Part shown: in pieces, positions 2,324-37,971 of the stretch | Layout: each line of letters opens with the position of its first letter | How positions within the stretch are numbered: the stretch's first letter is position 1 | Origin: Candidatus Moraniibacteriota bacterium | GTDB taxonomy: Bacteria; Patescibacteriota; Minisyncoccia; Moranbacterales; UBA1568 | DNA: 64,000 nucleotides | Direction of reading: 5' to 3' | Assembly (NCBI GenBank): GCA_016699385.1 | Contig: CP064974.1 | Coordinates: forward strand, 954,617-1,018,616 | Program-made: the position numbers and the translations under genes | Notes under the pieces: generated by a model | The model's input: only the letters and a program-made list of their open reading frames with translations | What the model was told of the DNA's origin: nothing | Database searches by the model: none

Positions 2324-3466
2324 TTGCTTTTGCACAAAGGGAATACTCATATTCACCGCTTTCAAAGAAAAGGTGTTGTTTATCTCAAACAACACAAGAC
2401 CGTTCGGATTCTCCACCTTTTTCGTCAATACTCTGCGCTCACCGTCGTCGTGTCGAGTGCTTTTCTCGTCACCGGAACCAATATCGCTACACATGAGCAA
2501 CCCGGAAGCATGCTTTCCGGCTACTTTCACACCGAAAACGCCGACGCGCAGCAATTTCCCATGAAAAGCCCTGCGAAACGCGAAAGCCTCTCATCAGCCC
2601 CACTTGCCTTTGCCTCCAACACTGTCGACACTGAAGCGAAACTCGAAGACCCTTCAGAAATAGACGCGCCAAGCAACACTATTATTGCTTCCTCAGACCT
2701 TGCTCCCGTCATTCAAGAAGACCCTGAGGAAGGCGAGGGAGTCAAAATATACACCATCCAAGAAGGTGATACCCTTGGGAAAATTGCCCAGGATCACAAT
2801 ATCACAATCAATACTATCCTTTGGGCAAACGACATTAGCAATATTGATGAGATTCGCCCTGGCGACCAGATATTCATTCTCCCTATCGCTGGACTCAAAT
2901 ACATCGTCAAAGAAGGCGACACCATACAAGATATTGCCAAGACATACCATGGCGACACTGAGCGCATTATCGCCTTCAACAACCTCCCCGCCAATGGTCG
3001 ACTAGAGACTAACCAAGAGCTTATTATCCCCGACGGCTACAAAGACACACCAAAGCCTGCATCTGACAGCCTCCTCGATCGTCGCCAATATGCCACATCG
3101 AGCGGCGGAGCAGCAACAGACATCTCCGGCTGGCGCACCCTGAGTGGCAAAGCCGGCACAGGACACACCTTCCCTTATGGCTATTGCACCTGGTATGTCG
3201 CTCAAAAACGCTATGTACCATGGGGAGGAAACGCTGGTACCTGGCTCTACAATGCCAAGGCGCTTGGGTATAAAACCGGGAAATCACCACGAGTTGGCTC
3301 TATTGTCGTCACCACAGAAAACCGCTATTACGGACACGTCGCCCTTGTAGAGAAAGTGCTTGATGATTCTATTATCGTAAGTGAAATGAACTATGTCGGC
3401 TGGGGGAAAACTGACCGACGCACCATTTCTTTGTCAAATAGAAGTATAAAGGGATATGTTTATTAA
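2324..3466 (+). CDS. Secreted peptidoglycan hydrolase with two LysM repeats and a C-terminal CHAP domain. It is the candidate VirB1/PrgK-like hydrolase of the adjacent T4SS-like locus.
   Basis: Two LysM-like repeats (YTIQEGDTLGKIAQDHNITINTILWAN; YIVKEGDTIQDIAKTYHGDTERIIAFNNL). The CHAP core is GYCTWYVAQKRY...YYGHVALVEKV (Cys...His). A hydrophobic segment (ALTVVVSSAFLVTG) follows a basic N-region, so signal/anchor-like. The ORF-track start is a TTG, so the true start is uncertain. Confidence 0.8.
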   Translation: MLLHKGNTHIHRFQRKGVVYLKQHKTVRILHLFRQYSALTVVVSSAFLVTGTNIATHEQPGSMLSGYFHTENADAQQFPMKSPAKRESLSSAPLAFASNTVDTEAKLEDPSEIDAPSNTIIASSDLAPVIQEDPEEGEGVKIYTIQEGDTLGKIAQDHNITINTILWANDISNIDEIRPGDQIFILPIAGLKYIVKEGDTIQDIAKTYHGDTERIIAFNNLPANGRLETNQELIIPDGYKDTPKPASDSLLDRRQYATSSGGAATDISGWRTLSGKAGTGHTFPYGYCTWYVAQKRYVPWGGNAGTWLYNAKALGYKTGKSPRVGSIVVTTENRYYGHVALVEKVLDDSIIVSEMNYVGWGKTDRRTISLSNRSIKGYVY

Positions 3467-3517
3467 AATTCCTGAGTCATTCGAGTGCCACATAACACCT
3501 ATTACAATTCATCACAT

Positions 3518-3548
3518 AAAGAACTCCCTTCCTGGAAGTTCTTTTTAT
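3518..3548 (+). terminator. Rho-independent terminator after the CHAP hydrolase gene
   Basis: AAAGAACT-[11-nt loop]-AGTTCTTT hairpin followed by a T-run. Confidence 0.5.
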
Positions 3549-4193
3549 AACTCGCCCTTTACGCTAGATAACAATAATCTCCCATTTAAGTCGCCAAACA
3601 AAAAGTTCTACCATTCTGAGAGAAATTGAGGAATCCAACCTTTCAAGAAGCATCCCCTCTATCTCCTCAATTGAGATTCCGATCTGTCAACGGAGTAGAC
3701 CATTCACGCTAATACCTCAGATGGCGCGCACTCTCGTAGCAATAAAAGAAGATGAAGTGCTTTTGAAAATTATCCACATAGTCCTATACCTTTGCATCTC
3801 TCCTTACTAAACAGACACGTTTGTTTATATCCTGTGTACAACTAGGGTATTCCTTGTGAAAAAGTCTGGAAAAACTCTGTGCATTACTCACACAAAACGT
3901 GCACAAACCAACCACTACATCCACCAAGACAGCAAGATCATCTCATACACACTGACTCACCACATATCACCTCATTTGAAAAAGGTGAGAATACCCGCAC
4001 ATTCTCCACTTCTCCACTTCTCCACCGAACTAATAGTAATAATATTAAAAAATATTAAAAAAACAGTTACTGATTAATGCAAGGGGAGATACTTTGTGAA
4101 CTCATTTAGGAGAAAAGTAAAGGAAATTTCTCTTATCAAGGGATAGGTGCTCTGCGTTGTAGTTGAAGTGACACGTGGATATTTTGGAATTCC

Positions 4194-4218
4194 TTGACAG
4201 GTGTTTTCGTGGTATACT
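4194..4218 (+). promoter_or_regulatory. Extended -10 promoter for the T4SS-like gene cluster
   Basis: TTGACA...TGgTATACT (TGn extended -10). Located inside the 5' part of the longest ORF 4175..6217, which argues that the real start codon lies downstream. Confidence 0.4.
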
Positions 4219-4252
4219 TTCCACTAGAAAACTGTTTTTGTTTTTTTGTTGT

Positions 4253-6217
4253 GTGAACAAAAGTAGTAAAACAAAAAAAACTCTCTTGTTTCGGGCTTCT
4301 CTTTTTGTGAGAAGTCATCCAGCTCTGCTCCTTGTGGTACTTGTAGGGTGTTTTTTGTTGACGCCAAACATGCATGTAGTGCAGGCTGGTAGTTTTTTGG
4401 ATTTAGTAACAACGCCGAGCGCGTGGATTAATGCGCTTATATATCCTTTCTTTTTGTTTTTTTCATGGATTGTAAATCTTGCTGCAGGGATTTTTGTTTG
4501 GGTTATCAATGCGACAACGTTTACAAAACTCATGAATGCGGGGGCCATCTATGAGGTGTGGCTTATTGTTCGAGATTTTCTGAATATATTCTTTATACTC
4601 GTACTTCTTTTCTCGGCATTTGCTACGATATTTCAACTCGATAGATATGAATACAAGAAAACGATTCCCATGTTGGTTATTATGGCGCTTTTGGTGAATT
4701 TTAGTTTTCCTATTGCGCGTTTTGTGATTGATTTGGCAAATGTGCCAATGTATTTCTTTTCACAAAACATATTTGGAGTGGATGGGCCTAACGAGATTAC
4801 CTCTGGAGTATTGAGTGGGACAAAGATGCAAAATATTCTTATACCAGGAATTAATGATGATAAGTCATTGGTAGATTTTAGTACAACCCATCTCCTTGCA
4901 GCGACCATCTGTATGTTTTTATTTGGTATTTCTTTCCTTGTTTTGTCAGTGTTGATGTTGGTTCGTATGATAGCGCTTGCTATTTTGGTGATGTTTTCAC
5001 CAATTGGATTTGTAGGGATGATTACACCGGCGTTGCAAGGTTTTGCGAAGGGATGGTGGGATAAACTCTTTAAGTGGGCGTTCTATGGTCCAATAGCAGT
5101 CATGTTTGTGTTGGTGTCGGTAATTGTTATGAAGTCTGCTGGAGACTCAATATATCCAACAGCGGGTGCTGGAGGGGTATTTCAATCCACGGGAAATTCC
5201 GTGAATGATAATATGATATCTGCTGTTGCCTTCTTTACTATCCCAATAGTGCTTTTTTGGATCGCTATTACCTCAGCAGAGAAATATAGCAATGATATGT
5301 CAGGTATGAGTGTGAAGTTTGGGTCGCAACTAGGGAGAAAGGCTGGGGGATGGGTAAGAAAGGGCGCTTGGGGAACTACGAAGTGGGCTGCAAAGGCTCC
5401 ATTGAAAGCGATTGATAATGTTACCCAAAATAGAATCTCCGGAACTACTCTTGGAATTCGTGATGCTTGGAGGAATAGGCAGTCTGCATGGTGGGGTGGG
5501 AGTGATATTGAGAATCGAAGAAAGAAAGTTTCTGATGATGTGGCATCTTCATTGAAACGCAAGGGAACGAGTACTCAAGAGGTTCAGAAGAAAGTTGCTG
5601 AACATGAAAAAGAAAATACTACTGAGGCAGATTTGAGGGAGCTTGTTAGAAAAAATGGTGATATTGCTGCTGCAATGGTGCTTGTGAAGCAAGGGAAGTT
5701 GACGGATGAGGAGTTTGCAAAGGTCCGAGTTGACCTTGATGATACTAAGGATAAAGCCTTAGTTGATCTTCTTGAAGGAAAAGTAAAGGAGAAGCGGATT
5801 GATTTGGTTATGAATTATAAGATTAACCAGGAAGCTACTGAATTAATGAAAAGATCTCCTGGTATGTCGAGGGAGGCGGCATTGGCTCGTGTTGGGGAGT
5901 CGGTAGCAGAAAAAGAAATCAAGAAATTAGCGCCAAGTAAATGGAAGGAGCAGAGTTTGAAGGATTGGTTTAGTCTTAAGGATGCTGCTGGAAAGGAAAT
6001 CGACTATGACATTGATGATTCAACTGGTGTGATTGAAGTGAAAGATAAAGTTACGGGTGCAGTTATTCACTCAGAAGGAGCGGAAATTTTGAGGGCGAAG
6101 GTTGCAGCTGCTCGAACCACATTTGGTTCATATCATGGTAAAAATAAGGATAAAGCAATTGATGATATGACTGGAGAGAAATTCACAATAGGGCAGGATT
6201 TGAAGATTTTTGTGTAA
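4253..6217 (+). CDS. VirB6/TrbL (PrgH/TcpH)-like polytopic membrane protein of a Gram-positive-type T4SS. It has a long charged coiled-coil C-terminal domain.
   Basis: After a signal-like N-terminus (KSSKTKKTLLFRASLFVRSHPALLLVVLVGCFLL) there are about 8-9 hydrophobic helices over ~370 aa. The last ~300 aa are K/E/D-rich. It sits immediately upstream of PrgI-like and VirB4 genes. Start is uncertain: GTG near 4253, GTG near 4307 or ATG 4370 (the ORF-track start at 4175 is a GTG upstream of the predicted promoter). Confidence 0.55.
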   Translation: MNKSSKTKKTLLFRASLFVRSHPALLLVVLVGCFLLTPNMHVVQAGSFLDLVTTPSAWINALIYPFFLFFSWIVNLAAGIFVWVINATTFTKLMNAGAIYEVWLIVRDFLNIFFILVLLFSAFATIFQLDRYEYKKTIPMLVIMALLVNFSFPIARFVIDLANVPMYFFSQNIFGVDGPNEITSGVLSGTKMQNILIPGINDDKSLVDFSTTHLLAATICMFLFGISFLVLSVLMLVRMIALAILVMFSPIGFVGMITPALQGFAKGWWDKLFKWAFYGPIAVMFVLVSVIVMKSAGDSIYPTAGAGGVFQSTGNSVNDNMISAVAFFTIPIVLFWIAITSAEKYSNDMSGMSVKFGSQLGRKAGGWVRKGAWGTTKWAAKAPLKAIDNVTQNRISGTTLGIRDAWRNRQSAWWGGSDIENRRKKVSDDVASSLKRKGTSTQEVQKKVAEHEKENTTEADLRELVRKNGDIAAAMVLVKQGKLTDEEFAKVRVDLDDTKDKALVDLLEGKVKEKRIDLVMNYKINQEATELMKRSPGMSREAALARVGESVAEKEIKKLAPSKWKEQSLKDWFSLKDAAGKEIDYDIDDSTGVIEVKDKVTGAVIHSEGAEILRAKVAAARTTFGSYHGKNKDKAIDDMTGEKFTIGQDLKIFV

Positions 6218-6252
6218 AAGCTTCCCATTTAGTTCGGTGCGAATTGTGTTTT

Positions 6253-7605
6253 ATGATTTACCTAAAACTTACTGACGATCAAAAAATAGCTAAGGCAAGT
6301 ACGCCGGTGCTTGTTTGGGCTACTAAGAATCCAGATGATGAAACGAGAGAGCAAGTTATTGAAAATCATGAACGATTTCGGAAGCTCCCATTTGAAGCGA
6401 AGTATAAACTTGGGTTCCAATATACTCCTGAGGTTATTAAGAAAATAGGGGAAGAGTTTGGAATGGATCCTTTGAAGTTAGCAAGTATTTCACGAGCACT
6501 TCGTAATTTCTATTTTGGTGATATAAAAAAAGGGGATATTTCCAGATTTTTAGGGGAAGAAATGGAGATATCATTGGAGCAAGCGAATAGGGTAGCTAAT
6601 ACTATAATAAAGAGGATTATTGAGGCTCCTATTCCAAAAGAGGCTTCTGAACAAGTGGATAATCTTCCACTTCTTGATGCGATTGCGAAGTATCAGCGGC
6701 TCTCTGAGCAGACGGTGACGGAGGATCGTATTGTGGTGAAGGGGGAATCTTCGCCGGTTCGCGGGTCTCTTCGCAATTGGTTGCGACATTATCGTGATGT
6801 GGTGGGTATACGGAAGCATTCTACGATGGAGAGGGGACAATTTCTTTTTCAGGGGGATAATACCAAGCGGCTTTCTGCAATAGAGCGAGAAAGAGTTTCT
6901 TTTCTTTTGAAGTCACTTGATGAGAATACGCCAGTATCAATCGATACTGATCGGCAAGAAATAATCTTTCCAGCATTTGAGGAAAGAGGAAATGCTGCGT
7001 CTGCGACCACAGCGGAGAGAGTGGTTCCAGCATTAGAGACTTCTTTTCGACCGCTCGAGAAGTTTCCAGCGCAGGCAGCGCCAATTCGAAAGGCGCTTGA
7101 GTGGAATAGAGAAGAGGTGAGAGGAAATGTTCTTCCTGAAAAGCGCTCGGAAGTATCGCAACAGAAGGCATCCACAACTGAAGTGGCAGCGCCTTTTGGA
7201 AATATTGCGCAACAGCCTTTTCCGGAAGCGGCAAAGTCACGAGCGGTTGGTGTATCGGCGCCGGTATATACACCTGCTTCTCCTCCTGTAGCATCGGGAG
7301 CCCCCATTCCTCAGCAGGGAAATATGAGCTTTAGCTCGAGTCATGTGCTCCCGCATGAGAAAGCGATTGCGGAGGCAAGTGCTCCGTCGCAGGATGCGCC
7401 AGTGCAGCAGAGTCCTCCTTCGAGTGTTCCGGAGAGTCCTCGTGAGCCAGAAGCGATTAGTGTGATTCGGCCGCGCGGGAATCATTCTGGATTTCGTGGA
7501 GGCGCTGAGAAAGAAACAGTAGCGTTGCCAGAGGGTAGCTCTGATGCTCCGCGTGTGGTAAACTTACGGAGTTCGGGAGGGAGAAACGCGCGAGGTCGAG
7601 TGTAA
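6253..7605 (+). CDS. Hypothetical protein of the T4SS-like locus. Soluble, with a Pro/Ser/Ala-rich C-terminal half.
   Basis: No recognisable motif. The N-terminal ~230 aa are globular-looking and the C-terminal ~200 aa are low-complexity (PASPPVASGAPIPQQG...). Its stop codon overlaps the next start as TAATG. Confidence 0.5.
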   Translation: MIYLKLTDDQKIAKASTPVLVWATKNPDDETREQVIENHERFRKLPFEAKYKLGFQYTPEVIKKIGEEFGMDPLKLASISRALRNFYFGDIKKGDISRFLGEEMEISLEQANRVANTIIKRIIEAPIPKEASEQVDNLPLLDAIAKYQRLSEQTVTEDRIVVKGESSPVRGSLRNWLRHYRDVVGIRKHSTMERGQFLFQGDNTKRLSAIERERVSFLLKSLDENTPVSIDTDRQEIIFPAFEERGNAASATTAERVVPALETSFRPLEKFPAQAAPIRKALEWNREEVRGNVLPEKRSEVSQQKASTTEVAAPFGNIAQQPFPEAAKSRAVGVSAPVYTPASPPVASGAPIPQQGNMSFSSSHVLPHEKAIAEASAPSQDAPVQQSPPSSVPESPREPEAISVIRPRGNHSGFRGGAEKETVALPEGSSDAPRVVNLRSSGGRNARGRV

Positions 7606-8084
7606 TGTGTTTGTTTGGGAAAAAGGTAAATGTTTTCAATGTGAGAGTGTTTGCGTGTAGAAAAGATATCATTGGAATGCGCTCTATGCTCTTCAATGTC
7701 CCACAATTTATTGATGTTGAAGATAAAGTAGCAGGCCCACTCACTGCCAAGCAAATACTCTGGATGGTTGGGATGGGCGGCGTATTGTTTATTGTGTGGA
7801 CATTCTTTGATACGACGACGTTCTTTGTGTTGTCTCTTCCGATTATTATTCTCTTTGTACTCTTTGCCTTCTATCGTCCTTACAATCAGTCACTCCTCTT
7901 TTTCTCTGTGAATGCGGTCATGTTTTTCTTCCGACCAAAGGTATATACCTGGGATCGCCCGGGTGTGGTGAAGAATGACATTGTGAAGCCGAAAGAAGAG
8001 AAGGTGATAATAGGTCCGAAGTCACTGTCAATCGAGGAGATACAATCATTGGCGAAGGCGGTTGATGGTGGGAAGAGTCGATAA
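7605..8084 (+). CDS. PrgI/VirB3-like small T4SS membrane protein
   Basis: Motif IDVEDKVAGPLTAKQILWMVGMGGVLFIVW (the family has KIfFGLTxRQ before two TM helices) and a later FFFRPKVYTWD. The ATG overlaps the upstream stop (TAATG), suggesting translational coupling. An alternative start is MRSMLF at ~7677. Confidence 0.5.
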   Translation: MCLFGKKVNVFNVRVFACRKDIIGMRSMLFNVPQFIDVEDKVAGPLTAKQILWMVGMGGVLFIVWTFFDTTTFFVLSLPIIILFVLFAFYRPYNQSLLFFSVNAVMFFFRPKVYTWDRPGVVKNDIVKPKEEKVIIGPKSLSIEEIQSLAKAVDGGKSR

Positions 8085-8203
8085 AGGAAGTTATTCTTGT
8101 GAAAAAGGGATTTTGATACTACGGATGAAATAATGATGAATGACTTGGGCGATATTTTCTTGGGATAAATGGAGTTAAAACCCCACCTTTGTGGGGATGA
8201 CAA

Positions 8204-8926
8204 ATGGATAAAATCTCTCTACCTATGGAAACTCTGAGTGATACCAAAAAACCAGCAGCGCAAGATTCAGCATCGAGCACGCAACGCTATGTGGAGGTTG
8301 AAGAGGTGCGCGATGGGGTGATTGTGCTCAAGAACGGAGCGTTTCGCTCGGTGCTTCTGGTATCATCACTCAACTTTGATCTCAAGTCCGCAGAGGAACA
8401 AGATGCTATCATTTTGCAGTATCAGAATTTTCTCAATTCTCTTGATTTCCCGGTTCAGATAGTTGTTTCTTCGCGACGATTTGATATTCGTCCCTACATT
8501 GAAGTATTGAAAGACAAAGAGAATCACCAGAGGAATGAATTGTTGCGACTTCAGATCTCTGAGTATCAGAATTTTATCAAAAGTCTTTCGGAAGTATCGA
8601 ATATCATGTCGAAATTTTTCTATATTGTGATACCGTTTTCTCCTGTTGAAGATAAGGAAAAAGGGCTATTTCATAGTTTGACGACACTTTTCAATCCGGC
8701 AGGAGCGATTACCGAACGTCGAGAGTTTTTTGAAACCTACAAGAATCAGTTGTGGCAGAGGGTGGATCATGTGAGCTTCAGCCTGTCGCAGACGGGGCTC
8801 AAAGTGGCACCACTTAATACTGAAGAATTGATTGAATTACTTTACAACTCCTACAATCCATCGCTTTTTACAACGCGGCTGACAAAGAATATTGAGGCGA
8901 TTGATTTGGCGGTTGAAAAAGTATAG
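8204..8926 (+). CDS. VirB4/TraE/PrgJ N-terminal domain as a separate ORF (first part of a split VirB4)
   Basis: RDGVIVLKNGAFRSVLLVSSLNFDLKSAEEQDAIILQYQNFLNSLDFPVQIVVSSRR matches the conserved N-terminal region of Gram-positive VirB4 homologues (Tn916 Orf16 / PrgJ type). It ends 98 nt before the ATPase ORF and is in a different frame. Confidence 0.6.
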   Translation: MDKISLPMETLSDTKKPAAQDSASSTQRYVEVEEVRDGVIVLKNGAFRSVLLVSSLNFDLKSAEEQDAIILQYQNFLNSLDFPVQIVVSSRRFDIRPYIEVLKDKENHQRNELLRLQISEYQNFIKSLSEVSNIMSKFFYIVIPFSPVEDKEKGLFHSLTTLFNPAGAITERREFFETYKNQLWQRVDHVSFSLSQTGLKVAPLNTEELIELLYNSYNPSLFTTRLTKNIEAIDLAVEKV

Positions 8927-9024
8927 CAAGGGTGTACGTTTTTCGAATTTTCCCTGAGTATCTGTATGCGTACATTTTTTGGTAGCTGGAGTTTTTGAGT
9001 CGTTGAATCTGGAATGAAACATAT

Positions 9025-10845
9025 ATGCGAGTCCCCTTTCTCTCCTCTTTGGGAGGAGAACAGAACGAAATATTGGAAAGTGAAGCGCTCTACCAGCGTG
9101 GCATAGCGCGTATTCGAGATCTTATCGCGCCGTCCGCTATCAAGGTAAGCGCGAATTCGTTGCAATCCGGTGAGACGCTTGTGCGGACACATTTCATTAT
9201 TGCTTATCCACGATATCTCAATACTAACTGGTTTTCACCGGTTGTGAATTTGGACTTTCCTATGGATACCGCGATGTTTGTGCATCCAATCGACACGCGA
9301 GATATATTGCGCAATCTCCTGAAGTCGGCGACACGCGTTGAGTCATCCATTCAAATAGAATCGGAGGCGGGAAAAGTTCGCAGTCCCGTGCTCGAGACAG
9401 CACTTCATGATATCGAGGAATTGCGCGATCGACTTCAGCAAGGAACAGAGAAATTTTTCCGTTTCAGTATCTATATTTCCCTCTACGCGCAGTCAATCGA
9501 AGAGCTCAATCGCATGAGTCGCTCTATCGAGGCGATGCTTGAATCCCAATTGGTCTATATCAAGCCAGCAGTCTTGCGTATGCAGCAGGGCTTTACTTCG
9601 ACCCGCCCTGTTGGCATGGATACACTCGATGTCGCGAATAATCTCAATACAGCGCCACTTTCAACGACTTTCCCCTTTGTGTCCGCCGATCTTTCTTCGA
9701 ATGACGGTATACTTTACGGCATCAATCGGCACAATAACAGCCTCATCCTCTTTGATCGGTTTAAGCTTGAGAATGCGAACATGGTGATATTTGCGAAGTC
9801 CGGCGCCGGGAAAAGTTATTTTATGAAGCTGGAAATCTTGCGATCGATGATGTTTGATACGAGCGTCATTGTGATTGATCCGGAAAATGAATACAAGCAC
9901 CTTGCCGAGACGGTAGATGGCTCGTTTATTCACATGAGCTTAAATTCCCCTTTTCATATTAACCCTTTTGATTTGCCAAAGAAGCGCGATGATCAAGAGG
10001 ACTTCGAGGGGCTCTTGCGGAGCAATATCGCAACCTTGATTGGACTCCTCCATCTCATGCTCGGCAGTGTCACTGCTGAGGAGGACTCGATACTCGATCA
10101 GGCGCTTCGCGAGACGTACGCGGTGCGTGATATTACTGGGAAAACGGATCTCTCGACGCTTACCCCATCATCATTTCCAACGATGAGTGACCTTTATGAA
10201 GTTTTGCGGAACATGGAGGGGACAGAGTCGCTGGCTGCTCGGCTGGAGAAGTATACACAAGGTATTTTCTCGGGATTTCTGAATCATTCAAGCAATATCA
10301 CCATGCAGAATCAGTTCGTGGTGTTCAATATTCGCGATTTGGAAGAAGAATTGCGCCCGATTGCCATGTATCTCATCTTGCATTATATCTGGAATGAGAT
10401 GCGCTCGGAGTTGAAACGGCGACTTGTTGTCGTGGATGAAGCATGGATTATGATGCAAAACGACGATGCAGCGAGCTTTCTCTTCGGTATTGCGAAGCGC
10501 GCGCGAAAATACTATTGCGGACTTACAACCATCACGCAGGACATCAGCGACTTCATGGGTTCGAGGTATGGAAAGCCAATCGTGACCAACTCGTCGCTTC
10601 AGCTTTTGCTCCGTCAGTCGCCAGCGTCAATTGATGTGGTGACAGAGACCTTCTATCTGACGGATCATGAGAAATTCTTGCTTTTGGAGAGCGCTGTTGG
10701 TGAGGGCATTTTCTTTGCCGGATCGAAACACGTCGCAATCAAAGTGGTGGCATCGTATAGTGAAGACCAGATTATTACCTCGAATCCAGAACAACTCGTA
10801 GAAATAGAGGCAGCGAAGCGCGAATTTGACGAACAAGGTGGTTGA
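9025..10845 (+). CDS. virB4: VirB4/TrsE/PrgJ-family conjugal-transfer-type ATPase (central and C-terminal ATPase part)
   Basis: Walker A VIFAKSGAGKSYFMK; Walker B-like LVVVDEAWIMM. Also IAPSAIKVSANSLQSGETLVRTHFIIAYPRYLNTNWFSPVVNLD and the C-terminal TTITQDISDF, all typical VirB4/CagE/TrbE. Confidence 0.85.
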   Translation: MRVPFLSSLGGEQNEILESEALYQRGIARIRDLIAPSAIKVSANSLQSGETLVRTHFIIAYPRYLNTNWFSPVVNLDFPMDTAMFVHPIDTRDILRNLLKSATRVESSIQIESEAGKVRSPVLETALHDIEELRDRLQQGTEKFFRFSIYISLYAQSIEELNRMSRSIEAMLESQLVYIKPAVLRMQQGFTSTRPVGMDTLDVANNLNTAPLSTTFPFVSADLSSNDGILYGINRHNNSLILFDRFKLENANMVIFAKSGAGKSYFMKLEILRSMMFDTSVIVIDPENEYKHLAETVDGSFIHMSLNSPFHINPFDLPKKRDDQEDFEGLLRSNIATLIGLLHLMLGSVTAEEDSILDQALRETYAVRDITGKTDLSTLTPSSFPTMSDLYEVLRNMEGTESLAARLEKYTQGIFSGFLNHSSNITMQNQFVVFNIRDLEEELRPIAMYLILHYIWNEMRSELKRRLVVVDEAWIMMQNDDAASFLFGIAKRARKYYCGLTTITQDISDFMGSRYGKPIVTNSSLQLLLRQSPASIDVVTETFYLTDHEKFLLLESAVGEGIFFAGSKHVAIKVVASYSEDQIITSNPEQLVEIEAAKREFDEQGG

Positions 10846-10906
10846 AATGATGTCTACTACTTCAAAGTGAAATGAAAGAAGTGGGCATTTGCTTGTATAT
10901 ATACCT

Positions 10907-11587
10907 ATGGCAGTTGCTCGTGTTGCGGTGAATGGTCGTGATAATTTTGCTCTTGAGCAGGCTGCTAAAGAAGAGCGAATGCTTTTTCGTGAGCAGCGAG
11001 AGCGCTTGCGACAGGCACAACAACAGGCGCACATCATTCAAGAAGAGGCAACCATTTCGGAAGAAGAGGAATTTGAATCGGAGCATGTGGAAATGGGGCG
11101 TGCAGAACGAGTAAGTATTTTCTCCTACTCAGCACCGTTCATCGTTGCTTGTTTCAAAGATTTTCTCGATTTTACTGTTGTGCTGGCGCTCCCGGGAATA
11201 GCGACTGTGATAAGTATGTGTGCCGATATACTTATATTATTACTCCTTTTCTTCCCAAAACATCGGTATCGACTTACAACGAATGCTCGATTGATTATTA
11301 TAGATGCATTCATCTTGATGGGACTTATTCCTCTTGAAGGGCTTGCGTTTCCATTTAATCTTCTCCCATTTACGGTGGCAGCTGTTGGAATGATTTATAC
11401 CGTCGACAAGAAGTTTGTTGCTGCACGAAATTCGAAGCGCTTTGATCGAAAGAAAATGAACGCAAATCTTACCGGTGTTATTCGACAGGCAGCGGATAAT
11501 CGGAAAAGTTCTGATAAAAGCAGGGTATCTGAACGGATGCAGTCTACTTGGGATACTCCAGAATATGAAGCTACACTTGGAGCGTAA
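10907..11587 (+). CDS. Membrane protein with an acidic/Q-rich N-terminal region and three C-terminal TM helices. T4SS-locus component of unknown role.
   Basis: Sits right after virB4. Hydrophobic helices: FIVACFKDFLDFTVVLALPGIATVI, ILILLLLFFP, IIIDAFILMGLIPLEGLAF. No recognised motif. Confidence 0.45.
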   Translation: MAVARVAVNGRDNFALEQAAKEERMLFREQRERLRQAQQQAHIIQEEATISEEEEFESEHVEMGRAERVSIFSYSAPFIVACFKDFLDFTVVLALPGIATVISMCADILILLLLFFPKHRYRLTTNARLIIIDAFILMGLIPLEGLAFPFNLLPFTVAAVGMIYTVDKKFVAARNSKRFDRKKMNANLTGVIRQAADNRKSSDKSRVSERMQSTWDTPEYEATLGA

Positions 11588-11611
11588 AAGAGGCACTAAA
11601 GGGTATATTTT

Positions 11612-12313
11612 ATGGCACCTTCTGAAAGAAAATACCCGCTTATTCAGTCATGTTTGAATCGGCGATTTCTCGCGATGAATGCGATAATAGCGGCAAGTAT
11701 TGTGCTTGCGCTTTTCTTTCCGATTTCGGGCACAGTAGAGCGATTTGTTTTAGCATTTTCAACATATTTTCTACTTCCGGCAGTATTTGTCCGTTTGGTA
11801 TTGCGAGAGCCACTGTCGACATTTGGCTTTTCATGGGGGAAAAGAGGTATCTTCTCGAATGTCGCATTGATAGTGTTGAGCGTTTGCGTGTTTGGTATGT
11901 TTGTGTGGGGAGTGCTTGCGGGCACATCTTTTGGGCAAGCATTTCTGAATGTGTCTCGAGGAGCTCATGCGGCACTACATAGCGATTTCTGGGTGTTTCT
12001 CGGGTCCCTAGGATTTCTCGCGTGGTTTGTTTTTTTGAAAGAAGTTTTCTTTCGTGGATTTTTCTTGCTTTTCTGGAAACGATATGCGTATAGATGGAGT
12101 CTTGTAGCGCATTTCCTCCTCATTGCAGCTGTCTCTACAAAAGAGCTTCAAATATTTGCTGATTCGGGGAGTGGGGTGACGTTTCTATTTACCATTGTCT
12201 GGTCAGTCATCGCCTCAATACTTGCATTTGTGACAGAATCCGTGTTTGTGTCGTTCTTTTTCTCGTTGTTTTCTGCTATACTCATATCGGTTCTTGCGAT
12301 TTCGATATCATGA
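11612..12313 (+). CDS. Polytopic integral membrane protein (6-7 TM), function unknown
   Basis: Hydrophobic throughout. A KEVFFRGFF motif weakly recalls the CPBP/CAAX-protease motif 1 (EExxxR), but motifs 2 and 3 are not evident. Its stop overlaps the next gene's start (ATGA). Confidence 0.45.
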   Translation: MAPSERKYPLIQSCLNRRFLAMNAIIAASIVLALFFPISGTVERFVLAFSTYFLLPAVFVRLVLREPLSTFGFSWGKRGIFSNVALIVLSVCVFGMFVWGVLAGTSFGQAFLNVSRGAHAALHSDFWVFLGSLGFLAWFVFLKEVFFRGFFLLFWKRYAYRWSLVAHFLLIAAVSTKELQIFADSGSGVTFLFTIVWSVIASILAFVTESVFVSFFFSLFSAILISVLAISIS

Positions 12314-15018
12314 AACAAAAAGGCATTCTTTTTTCAAAAACATTTCTCGCTGCGATTTTTCTCGCTGCCTTTTTGGTATTTCCAAAAGGGGTTTCTGCTG
12401 ACATTACGGATGTGTTTGTCACCAATATGCCGACATTTTCCGGTACGGTTGAAAATTTCGAGCGTCGGTATCATCTCAATCTGGAGAGCTTGCAGAATCA
12501 GGGGGAAAACTTCAATGTCTCCTCACAAAAAGGACAATCTCCACAAGTATTGCTCTATTTCAGCCCCTCTGATCCGAAGCCGGGAACGGAGATGGAAGCA
12601 CGTGCCTTCCCTGAGTTTTTTGGGAATGAGAAGGATACACTGTATTACACGTGGTATATTCGTCGAAAAGGCTGTGATTTGAATAACTCTCCAAATGAAG
12701 AAACCCTGAAACTCTGCGATCGGGATTCGAGTCCAAGTAGCAATGACTGGAGAGTTGACCGATTTGGAAATAAACGGGTCATATCTGTTGAGGATTGGAA
12801 GATTGAAGCTATGCAGGCAATTGTTGCGGAAAGCTTTGACTCCACATGTTCGCTCAATGGCAGTCTTACTGATGAAGAGCGTGCAAACTGTGCGGAGAAT
12901 ATGTACAATCCCGATGCGCCAAGTCGGGTGAATCCGACGGGGAACAAGGGGAACGATCGCGATGCGGATGGCTACCGCGCGACTTATGGAGGTGATGGGA
13001 AATCGGGACAAAATTCCTATTGTTATATTCATGATTTTCAGGATGGGGAGAATTACGAATTGACCAGTGGGTGTGAGCATCTCTTTCCGAATAATTATAA
13101 GATAGATGGGAATGGACGTATCTTTCGTGACGGAAATATCGGAGAAAGTGACGATTCGTTTTCTATAGATGAAGAGCATTTCTGGCGTACTGATCCAGAG
13201 GACCCGAGCACTGCGCAAAATGGCAATAAGGATGAAGCAAATATAGCTGGTTTGGGACAAGGGACATTTAAGTGGACGTATCAACCCGAAGATAGAGTTG
13301 GCGTTGTTGTGGAGGGCGCTTCTCTTTATACAACGAAGTACGATGATTCGAGCATGATGATTATGTGGGCATTGCCCAAGAATGTCTGCGCGGTTGTTGG
13401 GAAAGGAACGAAGCAAATTACAACAAAAGGCTTTTCGAGTGATGCGACAGCACAGGTGACCATTAATACCTCGACGACGGATATTAATGACTGTCTGGAA
13501 GATAACCTTGTCGATCCGACAGAGGGCGCACAAGCAGAAAATGTCGACGTTTCTCTCTCGTATGCGCCGGATGCGCCTTCTGCGAAGCTTATTCCTTGGG
13601 GGGATGATACGACCGATGCCAAGCTGATTGCTCAGACAGGGGATATGTTGACGATCAATGCCGCTTCTTCAAATGTGGAGCAAAGCACGGCGCTTACCAA
13701 TTACACGTGGCGCGTTCAGGCGAGTAAAGACGGCACCTTCAATACTCGCTTCAGTGACGAGAATGTGTGGACGGATATTACGCGCGATCTCCAAACAGCA
13801 AAAAACATCAGTGTGCCAAGTGGTAACAATGTTTCTTCCCTTTCGATTAACCTCAATTTAAATAGTACTGTTTATACTGATGCGAAAACGAACACGCTTA
13901 TCCCTGGTTTTAGTGAATACTTTGTTGACGATGTGGCATATTTCCGTATTATGGTGAGCGCAACGACGAATTTTGCCGGTGCAGTCAGTCAGAGTGGATC
14001 AAGTTCGGTTGTTGTCAAAATCGTGGCGAACAAGTCTGTCGATGTCTACGATGTTGATACAGTGAAAGACTCGACAACCGGACTTGTGAGCGTCAAGCGG
14101 AATAGCACAGAACTCTGTAAGAGCAATACGTTCCAGCAAACCATTTGCCCTGTTTTGAACAATCAAGTGGTAGGCGTGTTCCTGTCGACGGGTGAGGGAG
14201 AAATCCGTGATTATGCGTGGACACTCAATGGTCAGGCGCTTACGTGTACATCCCGAGTGTCGGGCGAATGTGATGATACGAAGCAGGGAGCGGTTAATTT
14301 TTTCCCTATTTCTGGAAATGTGGGGGATATGTATATCGTGACGGTAGTTGCCAACAATGCTGAAACGGGAAAGTCATTCACAGTATCGCGACGCTTTCAG
14401 ATTGTGGATCCAGATTTTGACATTGTTTCGACTGATACTGAGGCGGCCTGGCCGAAATACCTCGGTAAGTATGTCAATCTTGATGGTTCGGAGTCTGATG
14501 ATATGAGTAAGACGTCCTTTGAGGGAGTCGTGGGAGGTGTTGCGCAATTGTCCGCAATATTCCGTCCGGAAGTGCTCGGTACATTTGTCTTGAATGGTGT
14601 CAAAGCGGGTGATGATCAAAATGAAATGATCTGGTCTATTAATGGCAACCCTTTCAAGTGGAATGACACAGGTCTCTCACTTTCGCTCGACGGGAATGTC
14701 GGCGATATCTATACCGTGACGCTCTCTGGTGCCTATAATCAACCTCGCGAGCTCCGCAAAGCGCTCTATGATATCTGGCGTATTTCTCCCTTTAGCTCTG
14801 AAACGGTGCGATTTTCGAAAGAGATTCAGATTCAATTGATTGATGGGAACAACTATCTTGGTAAGACAAAATCAAATACGTTCTTTGCATCGATTCTCTC
14901 GGCAGTACCTCCATTTGTACTTTTTTCCGTCCGACTTATTCTTTCAATGGGGCTCATCCTTCTGATTATCGGTGTAGTGTTTTCATTCGCTCCGGAAACA
15001 AAGGAAGATAGGGCGTAG
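12310..15018 (+). CDS. Large (902 aa) secreted surface protein with an N-terminal signal peptide and a C-terminal TM anchor. Unknown function.
   Basis: Signal peptide MKQKGILFSKTFLAAIFLAAFLVFPKGVSAD. The mostly Thr/Ser/Asn/Asp/Gly-rich ectodomain predicts beta-rich structure. C-terminal FFASILSAVPPFVLFSVRLILSMGLILLIIGVVF followed by a short charged tail. Sits in the T4SS-like locus. Confidence 0.65.
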   Translation: MKQKGILFSKTFLAAIFLAAFLVFPKGVSADITDVFVTNMPTFSGTVENFERRYHLNLESLQNQGENFNVSSQKGQSPQVLLYFSPSDPKPGTEMEARAFPEFFGNEKDTLYYTWYIRRKGCDLNNSPNEETLKLCDRDSSPSSNDWRVDRFGNKRVISVEDWKIEAMQAIVAESFDSTCSLNGSLTDEERANCAENMYNPDAPSRVNPTGNKGNDRDADGYRATYGGDGKSGQNSYCYIHDFQDGENYELTSGCEHLFPNNYKIDGNGRIFRDGNIGESDDSFSIDEEHFWRTDPEDPSTAQNGNKDEANIAGLGQGTFKWTYQPEDRVGVVVEGASLYTTKYDDSSMMIMWALPKNVCAVVGKGTKQITTKGFSSDATAQVTINTSTTDINDCLEDNLVDPTEGAQAENVDVSLSYAPDAPSAKLIPWGDDTTDAKLIAQTGDMLTINAASSNVEQSTALTNYTWRVQASKDGTFNTRFSDENVWTDITRDLQTAKNISVPSGNNVSSLSINLNLNSTVYTDAKTNTLIPGFSEYFVDDVAYFRIMVSATTNFAGAVSQSGSSSVVVKIVANKSVDVYDVDTVKDSTTGLVSVKRNSTELCKSNTFQQTICPVLNNQVVGVFLSTGEGEIRDYAWTLNGQALTCTSRVSGECDDTKQGAVNFFPISGNVGDMYIVTVVANNAETGKSFTVSRRFQIVDPDFDIVSTDTEAAWPKYLGKYVNLDGSESDDMSKTSFEGVVGGVAQLSAIFRPEVLGTFVLNGVKAGDDQNEMIWSINGNPFKWNDTGLSLSLDGNVGDIYTVTLSGAYNQPRELRKALYDIWRISPFSSETVRFSKEIQIQLIDGNNYLGKTKSNTFFASILSAVPPFVLFSVRLILSMGLILLIIGVVFSFAPETKEDRA

Positions 15019-15132
15019 AGACGTAAGATTTTGCGTCTTTCCCTGAAGGGCAATAGAGGTGGCGTAAGGAATAGACAAAAACACAAAAGTCTGCGTATCT
15101 ACGTGAAGGACTGATGATATAAAGAACCTCGT

Positions 15133-16503
15133 ATGAAGTATCTGAAACAAATTGGGAAGATTTCTATTTTTTTACTTGGAGTCTTGGTTGTTTTCGGATT
15201 TTCTGAAAAGATGGTTTTTGGTGCGGAACCGACAACAGAAGCTGAATGTAAAGCGGTTACACCGAATGCTGGAGAATGTAGAGACGACATTGGTGTCGAC
15301 AGTTGCGCTGTTGGTGTATTGCACAAATATGGTACCTGCGGAACAGGAAAAGTCTGCTGTATTCGTTCCGGGAGTGTTGGATCAAACTGTGAAGCAAGTG
15401 GAAGAACAGGATTATGCAAAGAGAAAGATGGATGTAGTTCCTCGACTGAGGATGACCTTGGCGTTGGAAAAGACTGCCAGAAAGGAGCGCCAAATCTTCC
15501 TGATCTTACATGCTGCTCTTTAAAAAGTTCTAGTTCAAATCCAGATGTGACTTGCAATAAGCTGCAATGTGGCAATGGGATTTCTGGAACATGTATGCCG
15601 GCGTCTCCGGGTTGTGGTAATCTGACGCAGTATGGATCGTGCGGATCGAATCAACAGGGCGGATCTGTGTGTTGCATTCCAAAAGATTGTTCGCCTACGA
15701 CAACACCTACGGCGAACACATCTGGCTCCACTTCTCTCAACTATACCCCGCTTGAAAATTTGCCGGGGTTTGATGGGCAGAGTGGGGATTTCGCGACGTA
15801 TTTTGGGAATCTCTATAAATTGGCGCTGTGGATTGTGGGGATATCGGCACTTTTTATGCTCGTCGTAGGAGGATTTCTCTATCTTTCAAGTGCGGGGAAT
15901 ACCTCGCTTCTCGGCACTGCCAAGAAGTATATCTACTCCGCACTTATCGGGCTCGTGATTGCACTTATCTCATGGCTCCTCCTCGATACGATAAATGGCG
16001 ATTTGACGAATCTGAAACTGAGTGGACTGAATGGCGCAATTGGAACGAGCGGATCGAATTCTAGCTCTGGGGAAACACCAATAGCTGGGTCTGGGTCGGG
16101 TTGCAGTGGTGCAGAGACTCAATCCGGAGCACATTGCGAAGACGCGTCGCAAGCTGTTTCAGATGCACTTAAATGTATAGTTGACAAACTTGGAAGTAAG
16201 AAGATACAAATATCGAGCATTTCCGAAGATTCTGGAGGAAAGAGTCTGTTTACTCAATGTAGAGATAGCTATAGTCAACCTCCTTGTGAGCATACTACCA
16301 ACTCATGCCACTATGGTGGGAAAGCAAAAGCATCAAAATCATGTGCTGCTGATATATCAAATTCATATACGAGTAATGCTGGAGCTGCGTCGAAAGAAGA
16401 AATAAAGGTTGCTGCTCGTAGTTGTGGTACCCCTTTTATAAATGATGAGGGAAATCATGTACATATAAGTGTATCAGGTTGTGATTGTGATGGACATAAG
16501 TAG
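15133..16503 (+). CDS. Secreted Cys-rich protein carrying a VirB2/TrbC-like pilin hydrophobic core between Cys-rich ectodomains
   Basis: Signal peptide plus an N-terminal domain with two copies of a C-x-C...GxCGxGxVCCI motif. A central two-helix hydrophobic hairpin (YFGNLYKLALWIVGISALFMLVVGGFLYLSSAG...AKKYIYSALIGLVIALISWLLL) resembles TrbC/VirB2 pilins. The C-terminal Cys-rich domain has SCHYGGKA...AADI...EGNHVHIS, weakly reminiscent of LAS/M15-type zinc peptidase motifs (inference only). Confidence 0.5.
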   Translation: MKYLKQIGKISIFLLGVLVVFGFSEKMVFGAEPTTEAECKAVTPNAGECRDDIGVDSCAVGVLHKYGTCGTGKVCCIRSGSVGSNCEASGRTGLCKEKDGCSSSTEDDLGVGKDCQKGAPNLPDLTCCSLKSSSSNPDVTCNKLQCGNGISGTCMPASPGCGNLTQYGSCGSNQQGGSVCCIPKDCSPTTTPTANTSGSTSLNYTPLENLPGFDGQSGDFATYFGNLYKLALWIVGISALFMLVVGGFLYLSSAGNTSLLGTAKKYIYSALIGLVIALISWLLLDTINGDLTNLKLSGLNGAIGTSGSNSSSGETPIAGSGSGCSGAETQSGAHCEDASQAVSDALKCIVDKLGSKKIQISSISEDSGGKSLFTQCRDSYSQPPCEHTTNSCHYGGKAKASKSCAADISNSYTSNAGAASKEEIKVAARSCGTPFINDEGNHVHISVSGCDCDGHK

Positions 16504-16507
16504 GCGT

Positions 16508-17665
16508 ATGAAGAAATTTTTCATCATTACGGCGGTTTTGTTTGGAGTGTTGCTCTTGTTTTTCTTGATATATAATTTTCTTTTCAGAAATAATCCGCTT
16601 GATGGGAAGGTGCCAAATGTCGCGGTGATTCCAAATGAACCCAGTGCTTCTCCTCCGAAGCAGAGTGATGCGATGAAAGATCAGAAAATAGCGCCGCTTA
16701 CCGATGGCGAGGGAATTGTGCCGTTCTTTGATGCGAAAGATCGCGCAGTGTTCTATCTTGCACCAGATGAGAAAGCGCTCAAAGAAACTTTTCTCGCAAC
16801 GGGATTGCCGAAAACGGTGGTCAATTTCCCTTTCATTCCAAAGGATATCGTGTGGTCGCCAGATGGCGGGAAGGCATTGGTAAAGAAGAATGACACCGAG
16901 TGGGCGCTCTTTGTCCGGCAAAATGAAGGCGGATCGGGCGAATCAATGGTGTCTCTCTTGAAGCCCGGGATAGAGAGTCCGACATGGACGAGTCTTGGCG
17001 ATCGCATTGTCTACAAATATTTCGATGCGACGACAAAGAAGCGGACACTCAATATTGCCAATCCCGATGGTTCCGATTGGGGGATGATTGGAGAGACGCC
17101 GTTTCAGTTTCTTGAGATGCGCCCGGTGCCGAAGAGTTCGATGGTGGCGGTGTGGAATCGAGGAAATGCTTTTGAACGGACATCGCTCAAAGCATTGCCG
17201 ATTGTGGGCGGGGATATGCGAGAGATTTTTTCTGCCAACTATGGCGCGGACTACCTTTTTGCACCGAATGGCACGCGTATTCTCGTGTCCAATTCGATTG
17301 AGAAAGGAAGCTCGAGCATTTCCCTCGCACTTCTCAATGACCAAGGTGGTGAATATACCAATCTCTTTGTCCCGTCTCTTGTGGGGAAGGCGGTGTGGTC
17401 GAAGAATAGCCGGTTTGTCTACTACGCCCTTCCCGGGTCGATACCGGCGGGGAGTATTCTTCCGAATGACTACTATCGCAAACCGATTCTGACAATGGAC
17501 ACATTTTGGAAAGTGGATGTCGAGACCGGCGAGAAGTCACGCGTAGTGGATCCAAATGATATTGATCAGAGCTATGATGCCGAGAACCTTGTGCTCGATG
17601 CCGATGAAACCATGCTCTTCTTCCACAACCGACATGATGGGAAAATCTATCGAATCAATCTGTAG
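16508..17665 (+). CDS. N-terminally membrane-anchored beta-propeller protein (TolB/PD40-like repeats)
   Basis: N-terminal TM (FFIITAVLFGVLLLFFLIY). Repeated WSPDG / APNGTRIL / VWSKNSRFVYY type motifs typical of PD40 / WD40-like propeller blades. The start ATG is 4 nt after the upstream stop. Confidence 0.55.
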   Translation: MKKFFIITAVLFGVLLLFFLIYNFLFRNNPLDGKVPNVAVIPNEPSASPPKQSDAMKDQKIAPLTDGEGIVPFFDAKDRAVFYLAPDEKALKETFLATGLPKTVVNFPFIPKDIVWSPDGGKALVKKNDTEWALFVRQNEGGSGESMVSLLKPGIESPTWTSLGDRIVYKYFDATTKKRTLNIANPDGSDWGMIGETPFQFLEMRPVPKSSMVAVWNRGNAFERTSLKALPIVGGDMREIFSANYGADYLFAPNGTRILVSNSIEKGSSSISLALLNDQGGEYTNLFVPSLVGKAVWSKNSRFVYYALPGSIPAGSILPNDYYRKPILTMDTFWKVDVETGEKSRVVDPNDIDQSYDAENLVLDADETMLFFHNRHDGKIYRINL

Positions 17666-17707
17666 CACATTTGTGTTGGCGGGGTCGTTAGTTGAGAGAA
17701 AGAATTT

Positions 17708-19087: not shown

Positions 19088-19133
19088 GGACTGATAATGG
19101 TTCAGATGGTAAGGGGTGAATTTTGGAAGTATT

Positions 19134-20384: not shown

Positions 20385-21193
20385 AGGAAGAATATCTTTC
20401 GAAAAATGGCAAGGAGAAATCGTTCGTGTCGTGGGCGATGAAGGGCGAAGTATTGGTCTTGGGAGGTGTAGTACTCGCGCTTTTGTTGCTCTCGGGAATG
20501 CTCCATGCTCCCGCCTCCTCGATGAAGTATGTTCACGCGTGGCGTGAAGACGATTTTCTTGTGGAGCTTTTTTGTGCGAGTGCAGAGATCGACGTCTTCG
20601 TAGTAGAGAAAAAATCGTTCGTCAAAGCCATGGATTTGAAAAAAGAGCGCGCGAGGAATGACGAGTGCAGCACCGCTTACCCATGTGACAGATCGAGACT
20701 TTTTTGTATTCCAGAGTGAGGTGCTTGCCGAAAGTCCGAGGTGGTTTCTGAAGATATTTACGAGTGTGATGTGTTTGCCGGCACTCCATGGTTGAGGCTT
20801 TTCTGGCTCGATGAGGAGCTTCATGCCAACTATGCCAACAGACGGATACTGTTTGAATATACTTGCTATGTCCTGCATGTTTCCTGAAAGAAAACGCGCA
20901 TCGGGATTGAGGAATATAAGTATGTCGCCTTTTGCATATTCGGCGCCGCGATTTGCTGCAAAACCGAAGCCGTGATTTTTGGCGAGGGAGACAAGTGTGA
21001 AGGAGAACCTTTCTTTCAAGGAAAGAAGAACTGATTCTTCGCTCGGGTCATTATTGACGACAATACATTCGTATTCTTTGGGCAGAATGATATTTTGAAA
21101 CGATGAAAAACACGCCGGAAGGAGCGCTGCGCTGTGGTAGTTTACGATAATAAATGAAAACTTCGGCGTCTTCTGTCTCGTATTAGTATCCAT
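20381..21193 (-). CDS. Family-2 glycosyltransferase
   Basis: FSFIIVNYHSAALLPACFSS...VVNNDPSEES...DARFLSGNM...ERFFLYYEDVDL (GT2 DxD and ED motifs). The ORF-track ORF (to 21829) has a ~210-codon spurious extension. Start set at MDTNTRQK, overlapping the upstream gene's stop by 11 nt. Confidence 0.75.
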   Translation of the reverse strand: MDTNTRQKTPKFSFIIVNYHSAALLPACFSSFQNIILPKEYECIVVNNDPSEESVLLSLKERFSFTLVSLAKNHGFGFAANRGAEYAKGDILIFLNPDARFLSGNMQDIASIFKQYPSVGIVGMKLLIEPEKPQPWSAGKHITLVNIFRNHLGLSASTSLWNTKKSRSVTWVSGAALVIPRALFFQIHGFDERFFLYYEDVDLCTRTKKLHKKIVFTPRVNILHRGGGSMEHSREQQKREYYTSQDQYFALHRPRHERFLLAIFRKIFFL

Positions 21194-37952: not shown

Positions 37953-37971
37953 AGAAAATTTCTCTGAAGTT

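Follow-up and report, generated by a model that had tools for sequence, protein, structure and literature searches.

A chromosomal, relaxase-less type IV secretion system locus of the Patescibacteria type in Candidatus Moraniibacteriota

The stretch of DNA analyzed here (the window) comprises 64,000 nt of the chromosome of a Candidatus Moraniibacteriota bacterium with a genome of ~1.1 Mb (CP064974.1, positions 954,617-1,018,616). Between window positions 2324 and 17665 it carries twelve co-directional open reading frames (ORFs) on the + strand, separated by short gaps or overlapping, with the sole exception of a 708-bp gap at 3467-4174. An earlier note, made from the sequence, had read this region as a co-directional block encoding a type IV secretion system (T4SS) of Gram-positive type without a neighboring relaxase or coupling protein. 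The ORF listing bears out the block, and the profile scans support the reading as an MPF-FATA-like locus. Homologs of T4SS components are present, they are conserved among relatives in sequence and in gene order, and conjugation genes are absent from the window. The gene cluster is real and did not arrive recently as a mobile element. It is very probably a chromosomal, relaxase-less T4SS of the Patescibacteria type, which almost every member of that group carries, and acts as a contact-dependent conduit or attachment device directed toward a host and used in an epibiotic lifestyle.

About 50 ORFs spanning the window were searched against Pfam, and those left unassigned also against NCBIfam. 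Relatives of the VirB4 protein were sought in one genome per species and were found in 462 species-level genomes; the counts of loci given below refer to the 80 best. Gene order in these 80 loci was determined by tblastn with the proteins of the window. Within the block, Pfam matches were obtained for the LysM-CHAP, PrgI, VirB4 and pilin-core products and for none of the others. Of the seven T4SS-like products named in the earlier note, these four were recovered by the profiles (the pilin core at threshold) and the 902-residue surface protein by its topology, while the VirB6-like protein and the beta-propeller find indirect support. The earlier list of parts had missed a TrsD-like protein (8204-8926), an orphan (6244-7605) and two polytopic membrane proteins (10889-11587 and 11612-12313). 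A scan of 1-19 kb for promoters and terminators gave counts at or below the shuffled expectation, and therefore no operon boundaries were drawn from it. An Rfam scan of the window returned no matches.

The gene at 9025-10845 (+) encodes a VirB4 ATPase of 606 residues. It matches the CD1110 (MPF-FATA) family model of NCBIfam, conju_CD1110, with 352.8 bits against a cut-off of 325, the match covering only model positions 180-734, so that the first ~180 positions are lacking. Pfam reports P-loop_TraG (101 bits) and AAA_10, and Walker A-like (SGAGKS, residue 259) and Walker B-like (LVVVDE, residue 467) motifs are present, in agreement with the earlier call. Directly upstream lies the gene for a TrsD-like protein of 240 residues (8204-8926, +), which is kept in 77 of the 80 loci and has a mean column identity of 63% in an alignment of 41 sequences. 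In NCBIfam it matches VirB4_plasma, the model of the VirB4 of Mycoplasma integrative and conjugative elements (ICEs), at positions 91-233 (E 1e-11), conju_CD1110 at positions 3-118 (E 1.4e-6), and the TrsD/TraD model NF041427 (E 2.4e-6). Since the two genes match complementary stretches of the conju_CD1110 model (3-118 and 180-734), the TrsD-like protein and the 606-residue ATPase are predicted to make up a split VirB4, in which the former is equivalent to the N-terminal part of a long VirB4. The possibility that the TrsD-like protein is a paralog of the retained part of VirB4 was rejected: an hhalign comparison of both alignments gave a probability of 1%, i.e., the two are unrelated. This fits a TrsD-like protein that corresponds to the part of VirB4 missing from the 606-residue ATPase. 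The small PrgI/VirB3-like protein encoded at 7605-8084 (+), a putative membrane partner of VirB4, has two predicted transmembrane segments, passes the Pfam PrgI cut-off of 27 with 33.8 bits, as the earlier call had implied, and is kept in 74 of the 80 loci.

A further component near virB4 is the polytopic protein of 680 residues encoded at 4175-6217 (+), the true start of which is probably ~28 codons downstream. Some 7-8 transmembrane helices are predicted, and the ~300 residues at the C-terminus make up a hydrophilic, helical domain. The earlier assignment to VirB6/TrbL stands in part. The protein itself has no match in Pfam and only a weak one in NCBIfam (CD3337_EF1877, E 0.0027). Its homologs (~32% identity, E ~1e-65 to 1e-68) pass PF04610 (TrbL), P0070 with 28.9 bits and P0089 with 26.8 bits (cut-off 25.9). 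In a Foldseek search with an AlphaFold2 model built on 76 sequences (mean predicted local distance difference test score 79), R388 TrwI/VirB6 takes the first four places among PDB structures, with probabilities of 0.99-1.0 and target TM-scores of 0.39-0.56, the E-values being only 0.04-0.15. On this indirect evidence from homologs and a predicted model the protein is accepted as a putative 'extended VirB6'. The next gene (6244-7605, +) encodes g453, a conserved orphan and putative cytoplasmic protein in which a helical N-terminal domain and a small alpha/beta domain precede a disordered tail of ~200 residues that is rich in proline. Sequence searches of solved structures with profiles of the VirB6-like protein, the TrsD-like protein and g453 gave nothing significant.

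The block begins with a gene for a peptidoglycan hydrolase with two LysM domains and one CHAP domain, a VirB1 analog (2324-3466, +). Its Pfam scores, 79.8 bits for LysM and 66.7 bits for CHAP, are both past the cut-offs and confirm the earlier call. The protein has a weakly hydrophobic N-terminal segment, and Cys288 and His338 (motifs CTW288 and GHVA337) are candidate active-site residues of the CHAP domain. A homolog occupies the equivalent position in 48 loci. Downstream of virB4 follow two polytopic membrane proteins without a family match in Pfam or NCBIfam, g232 (10889-11587, +; a charged N-terminal region, then 3-4 predicted transmembrane segments; detected in 30 loci at ~31% identity) and g233 (11612-12313, +; 5-6 predicted transmembrane segments; detected in 22 loci). 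The large surface protein g902 (12310-15018, +) has the topology described in the earlier note, with a signal-like N-terminus and a C-terminal transmembrane anchor, and contains 12 Cys. It has no match in Pfam (also none for its sub-domains at E<=10), NCBIfam or PDB, and 55 loci have a homolog on the downstream side of VirB4. It may be an adhesin or else a component that spans the envelope.

The pilin-core protein (15133-16503, +; 456 residues, 30 Cys) combines a signal-like N-terminus, a Cys-rich domain of ~170 residues, a VirB2-like two-helix hairpin (residues ~204-300) and a Cys-rich C-terminal domain of ~150 residues. Residues 222-286 match PF18895 (T4SS_pilin) with 27.3 bits against a cut-off of 26.6, and NCBIfam reports Mbov_0395 pilin-like on the same segment (E 0.014). 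A VirB2-like pilin of the PF18895/PF04956 type is thus present near virB4 by a thin margin, and the earlier description as a TrbC/VirB2-like core inside a larger protein holds at threshold. Neither the sub-domains of the protein in Pfam at E<=10 nor a profile of the C-terminal domain in solved-structure searches gave a significant match. Counterparts lie at 7653-8675 of L001, a Moranbacteria-like metagenome-assembled contig, and at 16573-17847, 16436-17725 and 16662-17171 of the related loci L003, L005 and L002, respectively. The Cys-rich N- and C-terminal domains are confined to the closest relatives; distant relatives keep the pilin core alone, often as 2-3 tandem small genes. The gene is the fastest-evolving of the block, with 49% identity to its counterpart in L001, the VirB4 of which is 98% identical. 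It is conceivable, if doubtful, that this lone pilin-core gene is the determinant of host specificity, through ectodomains that are Cys-rich and evolve fast. As a side observation, the C-terminal domain has an invariant pattern, CH(Y/H)G ... DI ... H(V/L)H(I/V)S, which is reminiscent of LAS-type zinc peptidases, with no match in Pfam or PDB.

The last gene of the block (16469-17665, +) encodes g398, a putative extracytoplasmic protein of 398 residues. The membrane anchor proposed earlier is present as a single N-terminal transmembrane segment, and the proposed propeller fold is indicated through names of homologs, some of which are called 'Tol biopolymer transport system component' or 'WD40 repeat protein' (JGI); the protein has no match of its own in Pfam, NCBIfam or PDB. 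By these names it is probably a TolB-like beta-propeller. It was detected by tblastn beside the block only in the seven nearest loci, and its link to the T4SS is weak.

No match to a relaxase or to a coupling protein of the VirD4/TcpA type was obtained among the ~50 ORFs of the window in Pfam and NCBIfam. The sole VirD4-like signals were noise-level P-loop matches of VirB4 (E 0.058). The earlier statement that the window lacks both genes thus holds for every ORF tested by either database. Nor are relaxases or type IV coupling proteins (T4CPs) among the 25 most frequent of 73 Pfam families of 32 neighboring ORFs in seven related loci. In these respects the 64-kb window differs from a self-transmissible MPF-FATA element, oriT not having been specifically searched. 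The locus is chromosomal, and 8.2 kb separate the end of the block from dnaA.

The VirB4 proteins of the 80 best of the 462 genomes are 70-98% identical to that of the window. Nearly all of these genomes are metagenome-assembled genomes of Candidatus Moranbacteria/Moraniibacteriota or other Patescibacteria, some mislabelled 'Bdellovibrionales'. The order uvrD-xer-LysM/CHAP-VirB6-like-g453-PrgI-TrsD-VirB4-(g232, g233)-g902 is kept, orientation included, in most loci with full flanks. In a second sublineage, as seen by tblastn, the pilin genes and PrgI-TrsD-VirB4 come first, and uvrD-xer-LysM/CHAP-VirB6-like lies 6-10 kb downstream of VirB4. In this alternative arrangement, observed in the Moranbacteria loci L013, L027, L029, L040, L045 and L048 (at ~5000-21000), a protein of ~480-525 residues and 1-3 small pilin-core genes precede PrgI-TrsD-VirB4, and a conserved trio of ~508, 320 and 270 residues follows VirB4. 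The ratios of nonsynonymous to synonymous substitution rates (dN/dS) relative to L001 are 0.010 for VirB4, 0.015 for the TrsD-like protein, 0.024 for g902 and 0.039 for PrgI; these values are only indicative because dS is saturated, and suggest that the four genes are under strong constraint. The GC content of the block, its GC content at third codon positions and its codon-usage distance lie within the range of the other genes of the window.

The earlier note had taken the tyrosine recombinase gene upstream of the block (1112-2044, -) as a hint of horizontal acquisition, with the caveat that it might be a chromosomal Xer. The caveat proved correct. In Pfam the recombinase matches Phage_integrase and SAM_1. 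In NCBIfam its matches to XerD (252.9 bits) and XerC (251.5 bits) span the whole of each model, and XerA_Arch is matched as well (238.6 bits, cut-off 220). In 49 of the 80 loci its gene has uvrD and the LysM-CHAP gene as neighbors, and it is a conserved chromosomal neighbor rather than the integrase of an element. The position of this gene, 280 bp upstream of the block on the opposite strand, together with the missing relaxase and T4CP, is what one would expect of an ICE remnant, decaying or integrated not long ago, that owed its arrival to the recombinase. That explanation was rejected on synteny, composition and constraint and is hardly credible: the order and orientation of uvrD, xer, hydrolase and T4SS genes are constant across most loci with full flanks, dN/dS is far below 1, the ATPase motifs are intact, GC content and codon usage do not deviate from the flanks, and the recombinase matches the Xer models end to end. 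A tRNA scan of the window detected no tRNA gene, and therefore there is no classic tRNA integration site. Neither variable presence, nor atypical composition, nor a tRNA or attachment site with an element integrase was found at the locus. Conserved order, constraint, native composition and the conserved Xer-type recombinase indicate that the locus is fixed and inherited vertically and speak against its having been acquired recently, and the earlier hints of acquisition are contradicted. Because the locus is fixed in its lineage and has no linked relaxase or coupling ATPase, it would not mobilize an element. It is also quite improbable that the block is a working conjugation apparatus for which relaxase, coupling protein and oriT are located elsewhere in the chromosome and act in trans on an element or on the chromosome itself. 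Such an arrangement would agree with the restriction of the view to 64 kb of a ~1.1-Mb genome, and with a survey of Patescibacteria in which T4CP genes are often unlinked to virB4 (5,713 VirD4 homologs in 2,918 genomes, mostly far from virB4; Quiñonero-Coronel et al. 2025, Microb Genom, PMC12102498). The rarity of relaxases in the same survey (103 of 3,035 Patescibacteria genomes) speaks against it, as do the fixed and syntenic position of the locus across the lineage, unlike that of conjugative elements, and the non-essential T4CP of Southlakia epibionticum, where the T4SS genes are essential.

The reading we prefer is that the T4SS probably serves host attachment or exchange. According to two reviews, transposon sequencing in S. 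epibionticum showed the T4SS and its pilin array to be essential for growth on the host and comEC to be dispensable, and the proposed T4SS roles are effector delivery or uptake of nutrients or nucleic acids (PMC12857230, PMC11665869). As to assembly and function in the window organism, we infer the following. The motor would be a VirB4 hexamer made as two polypeptides, the TrsD-like N-terminal part and the 606-residue ATPase. The PrgI/VirB3-like protein would dock this motor at the membrane onto a channel formed by the extended VirB6-like protein. The LysM-CHAP enzyme may open or remodel the organism's own cell wall locally, and the VirB2-like pilin core with its Cys-rich ectodomains, together with the anchored g902, would form the external, host-facing part. 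The machine would then serve attachment to or exchange with a host and not self-transfer, either by exporting effectors or by importing host macromolecules. If the direction of transport is specified as inward, this becomes a machine for nucleic-acid import like H. pylori ComB or archaeal Ced, pulling host DNA or RNA into a nucleotide-auxotrophic cell, and so really a sub-case of the same explanation. We regard this as rather unlikely. The absence of a relaxase and T4CP makes export of the cell's own DNA unlikely; the T4SS has been named a candidate route of nucleotide acquisition, competence being dispensable in S. epibionticum (PMC11665869); and a preprint (10.64898/2026.06.21.733656) reports that a parasite of this lineage acquires host RNA, with tubular structures that may be T4SS pili. 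On the other side, the VirB4 is weakly similar to CedB, but its 54.6 bits fall far short of that family's cut-off (700) and mirror VirB4 homology in general; neither CedA-like components nor any specific to ComB were recognized, and no Patescibacterium has given direct evidence for import.

Several points weigh against the assignment as a host-directed T4SS. A coupling protein or relaxase could lie elsewhere in the genome, VirD4 being often far from virB4 in the 2025 survey. Essentiality has been shown in Saccharibacteria, which belong to another class than Moranbacteria. The pilin call is just 0.7 bits past the PF18895 cut-off, and the VirB6-like protein of the window has no Pfam match, TrbL included, even at E<=10. 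The conserved components g453, g232, g233 and g902 have no recognizable family, and the architecture of the machine is therefore partly guesswork. Patescibacteria T4SSs are among the few machines shown to be essential for epibiotic growth. The main practical result for the present locus is a negative one, namely that the reading as a horizontally acquired element on the lagging strand should be dropped.

The claim that the block lies on the lagging strand had been made because the origin was assumed to be at dnaA (25843-27432). GC skew indicates the opposite: the + strand, which is the coding strand of the block, is C-rich up to ~4.0 kb; beyond that point it stays G-rich as far as 64 kb, passing dnaA without an inflection, and the sign of the skew tracks the DNA strand and not gene orientation. 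Judged by GC skew, a proxy, the T4SS operon is co-directional with replication. The cumulative skew minimum of the window is at 4026, 21.8 kb from dnaA, within the AT-rich (GC 0.39) intergenic region of 708 bp at 3467-4174, a candidate origin and/or operon control region. This region contains a perfect DnaA box at 3770 and three tandem TTCTCCAC at 4002/4010/4018 (4002-4025), followed by an A/T run; the gap between rpmH and dnaA is only ~140 bp. An ORF at 3856-4077 (73 residues) in the intergenic gap was discarded as not pilin-like and probably spurious. Among relatives that contain the junction of the LysM-CHAP and VirB6-like genes, the three closest, L002 (~5949), L003 (~5061) and L005 (~4917), likewise have their skew minimum there. 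In ~35 more distant loci the whole locus is G-rich on the T4SS coding strand. The lack of a switch at the junction in distant Moranbacteria with the same gene order suggests that the position of the origin differs between Moranbacteria sublineages. We consider it doubtful that the chromosomal origin of this sublineage lies in 3467-4174, upstream of the T4SS operon, and not beside dnaA. If it did, no genes of the leading strand would be replicated earlier than those of the T4SS, and DnaA could couple their expression directly to initiation.

The remaining part of the window contains housekeeping genes (PcrA/UvrD, Xer, jag, yidC, rnpA, rpmH, dnaA, dnaN, PBP1, ruvABC, polA, holA, tsaE and a PilB-type ATPase) as well as surface-polysaccharide genes, i.e., two Wzy_C/O-antigen-ligase-like genes, a family-2 glycosyltransferase and a flippase. 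The surface-polysaccharide cluster (17708-23506, -) sits between the T4SS block and jag-yidC-rnpA-rpmH, and lies beside the block only in the closest relatives. In it the two Wzy_C genes stand in tandem and are followed by the glycosyltransferase and the flippase. Because the maximal ORFs of the two Wzy_C genes overlap by 386 bp, the start of the ORF of 603 residues is probably over-extended. At 46989-50027 (-) a protein of 1012 residues contains two regions of T2SSE/PilB-type ATPases (GspE 869 bits, PilB 826 bits, two matched stretches) and looks as if type IV pilus assembly ATPases had been fused in tandem. The clearest compositional outlier of the window is found at 37002-38895 (-), where the GC content dips to ~0.37 from ~0.47-0.50 around it. 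This dip, which covers an ATP-grasp (RimK-like) and a DUF3541 gene, lies inside an ATP-grasp/7TM-transglutaminase-type cluster and has a stronger claim than the T4SS block to be a candidate for acquired DNA.

Among known systems, the DNA importers ComB of H. pylori and Ced of Sulfolobales are non-conjugative machines that share with the window a VirB4-family ATPase that works with neither a relaxase nor a coupling protein. Components specific to ComB or Ced were not recognized in the window; against the Ced models, CedD scored 19.7 bits (cut-off 600) and CedB remained as far below its cut-off as stated above, so that the locus was not assigned to Ced or ComB. The MPF-FATA T4SSs of monoderms (CTn2 with the CD1110-type VirB4, pGO1 with TrsD, pCF10 with PrgI/PrgH/PrgK) resemble the locus in a VirB4 passing the CD1110 model, TrsD-like and PrgI-like proteins, a polytopic VirB6 analog, a CHAP-type wall hydrolase and the lack of outer-membrane core components. 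Unlike them, the window has no relaxase, VirD4/TcpA, recognizable VirB8-like protein (PrgL/TcpC) or PrgB-type adhesin; it has a VirB2-like pilin, and its locus is fixed in the chromosome and not carried by a mobile element. Plasmid homologs of the VirB4 are ~29-36% identical, the nearest only 36%.

The nearest relative found outside the candidate phyla radiation (CPR) is a locus of the Firmicute Pontibacillus sp. ALD_SL1 (NZ_CP062975.1, 351.8-361.4 kb), on a non-mobilizable replicon of 898 kb. Its core order is like that of the window, with two T4SS_pilin genes, TrbL-like, PrgI/TraL-like, TrsD-like, CD1110-type VirB4 and wall hydrolase. The VirB4 is 36% and the TrsD-like protein, encoded directly upstream of virB4, 30% identical, and here too the annotation shows neither a relaxase nor a T4CP within 12 kb. 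It differs in its small pilins (145-151 residues) and in the hydrolase, which is NlpC/P60 + M23 and encoded downstream; homologs of g453 and g902 were not detected at this locus. The Pontibacillus locus (L081, 7522-17075) lies beside flagellar genes and is an example of a pilin-bearing, relaxase-less monoderm T4SS outside the CPR.

The closest correspondence is with the T4SSs of Patescibacteria described by Quiñonero-Coronel et al. (PMC12102498), who found VirB4 in 2,417 of 3,035 genomes, nearly all in one clade nested in MPF-FATA, with TrsD as its commonest partner. They also reported near virB4 PrgI/VirB3, VirB6, VirB1 analogs (some with LysM and linked to virB4 in Paceibacteria) and PF18895-type pilins, and placed the T4SS near dnaA and dnaN, with proximity to dnaA in Paceibacteria. 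The window shares with that clade the MPF-FATA-related VirB4, a TrsD-like partner encoded beside it (E 1e-11 to 2e-6), PrgI/VirB3, VirB6 (through its homologs and the fold match to R388 TrwI), a LysM-bearing VirB1 analog linked to virB4, a PF18895 VirB2-like pilin, the lack of a nearby relaxase and a chromosomal position near dnaA. The earlier placement among the relaxase-less systems of CPR bacteria is borne out by this match. Compared with the prototype of S. epibionticum ML1 (Wang et al. 2023, cited in PMC12857230), the window has one pilin-core gene with large Cys-rich domains instead of an array of small pilins, and its LysM-CHAP hydrolase is encoded upstream, whereas the peptidase and lysozyme genes of ML1 lie downstream of virB4. 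The proteins g453, g232, g233 and g902 are specific to the lineage and lack a named counterpart. Since the locus fits the published description feature by feature, its kind is already known from the 2025 study and it is nothing new as such. It is a clean, fully syntenic example from Moranbacteria with a defined list of parts, and the split VirB4, the extended VirB6, the four conserved orphans and the decorated, rapidly diverging pilin on that list could guide structural and comparative work.

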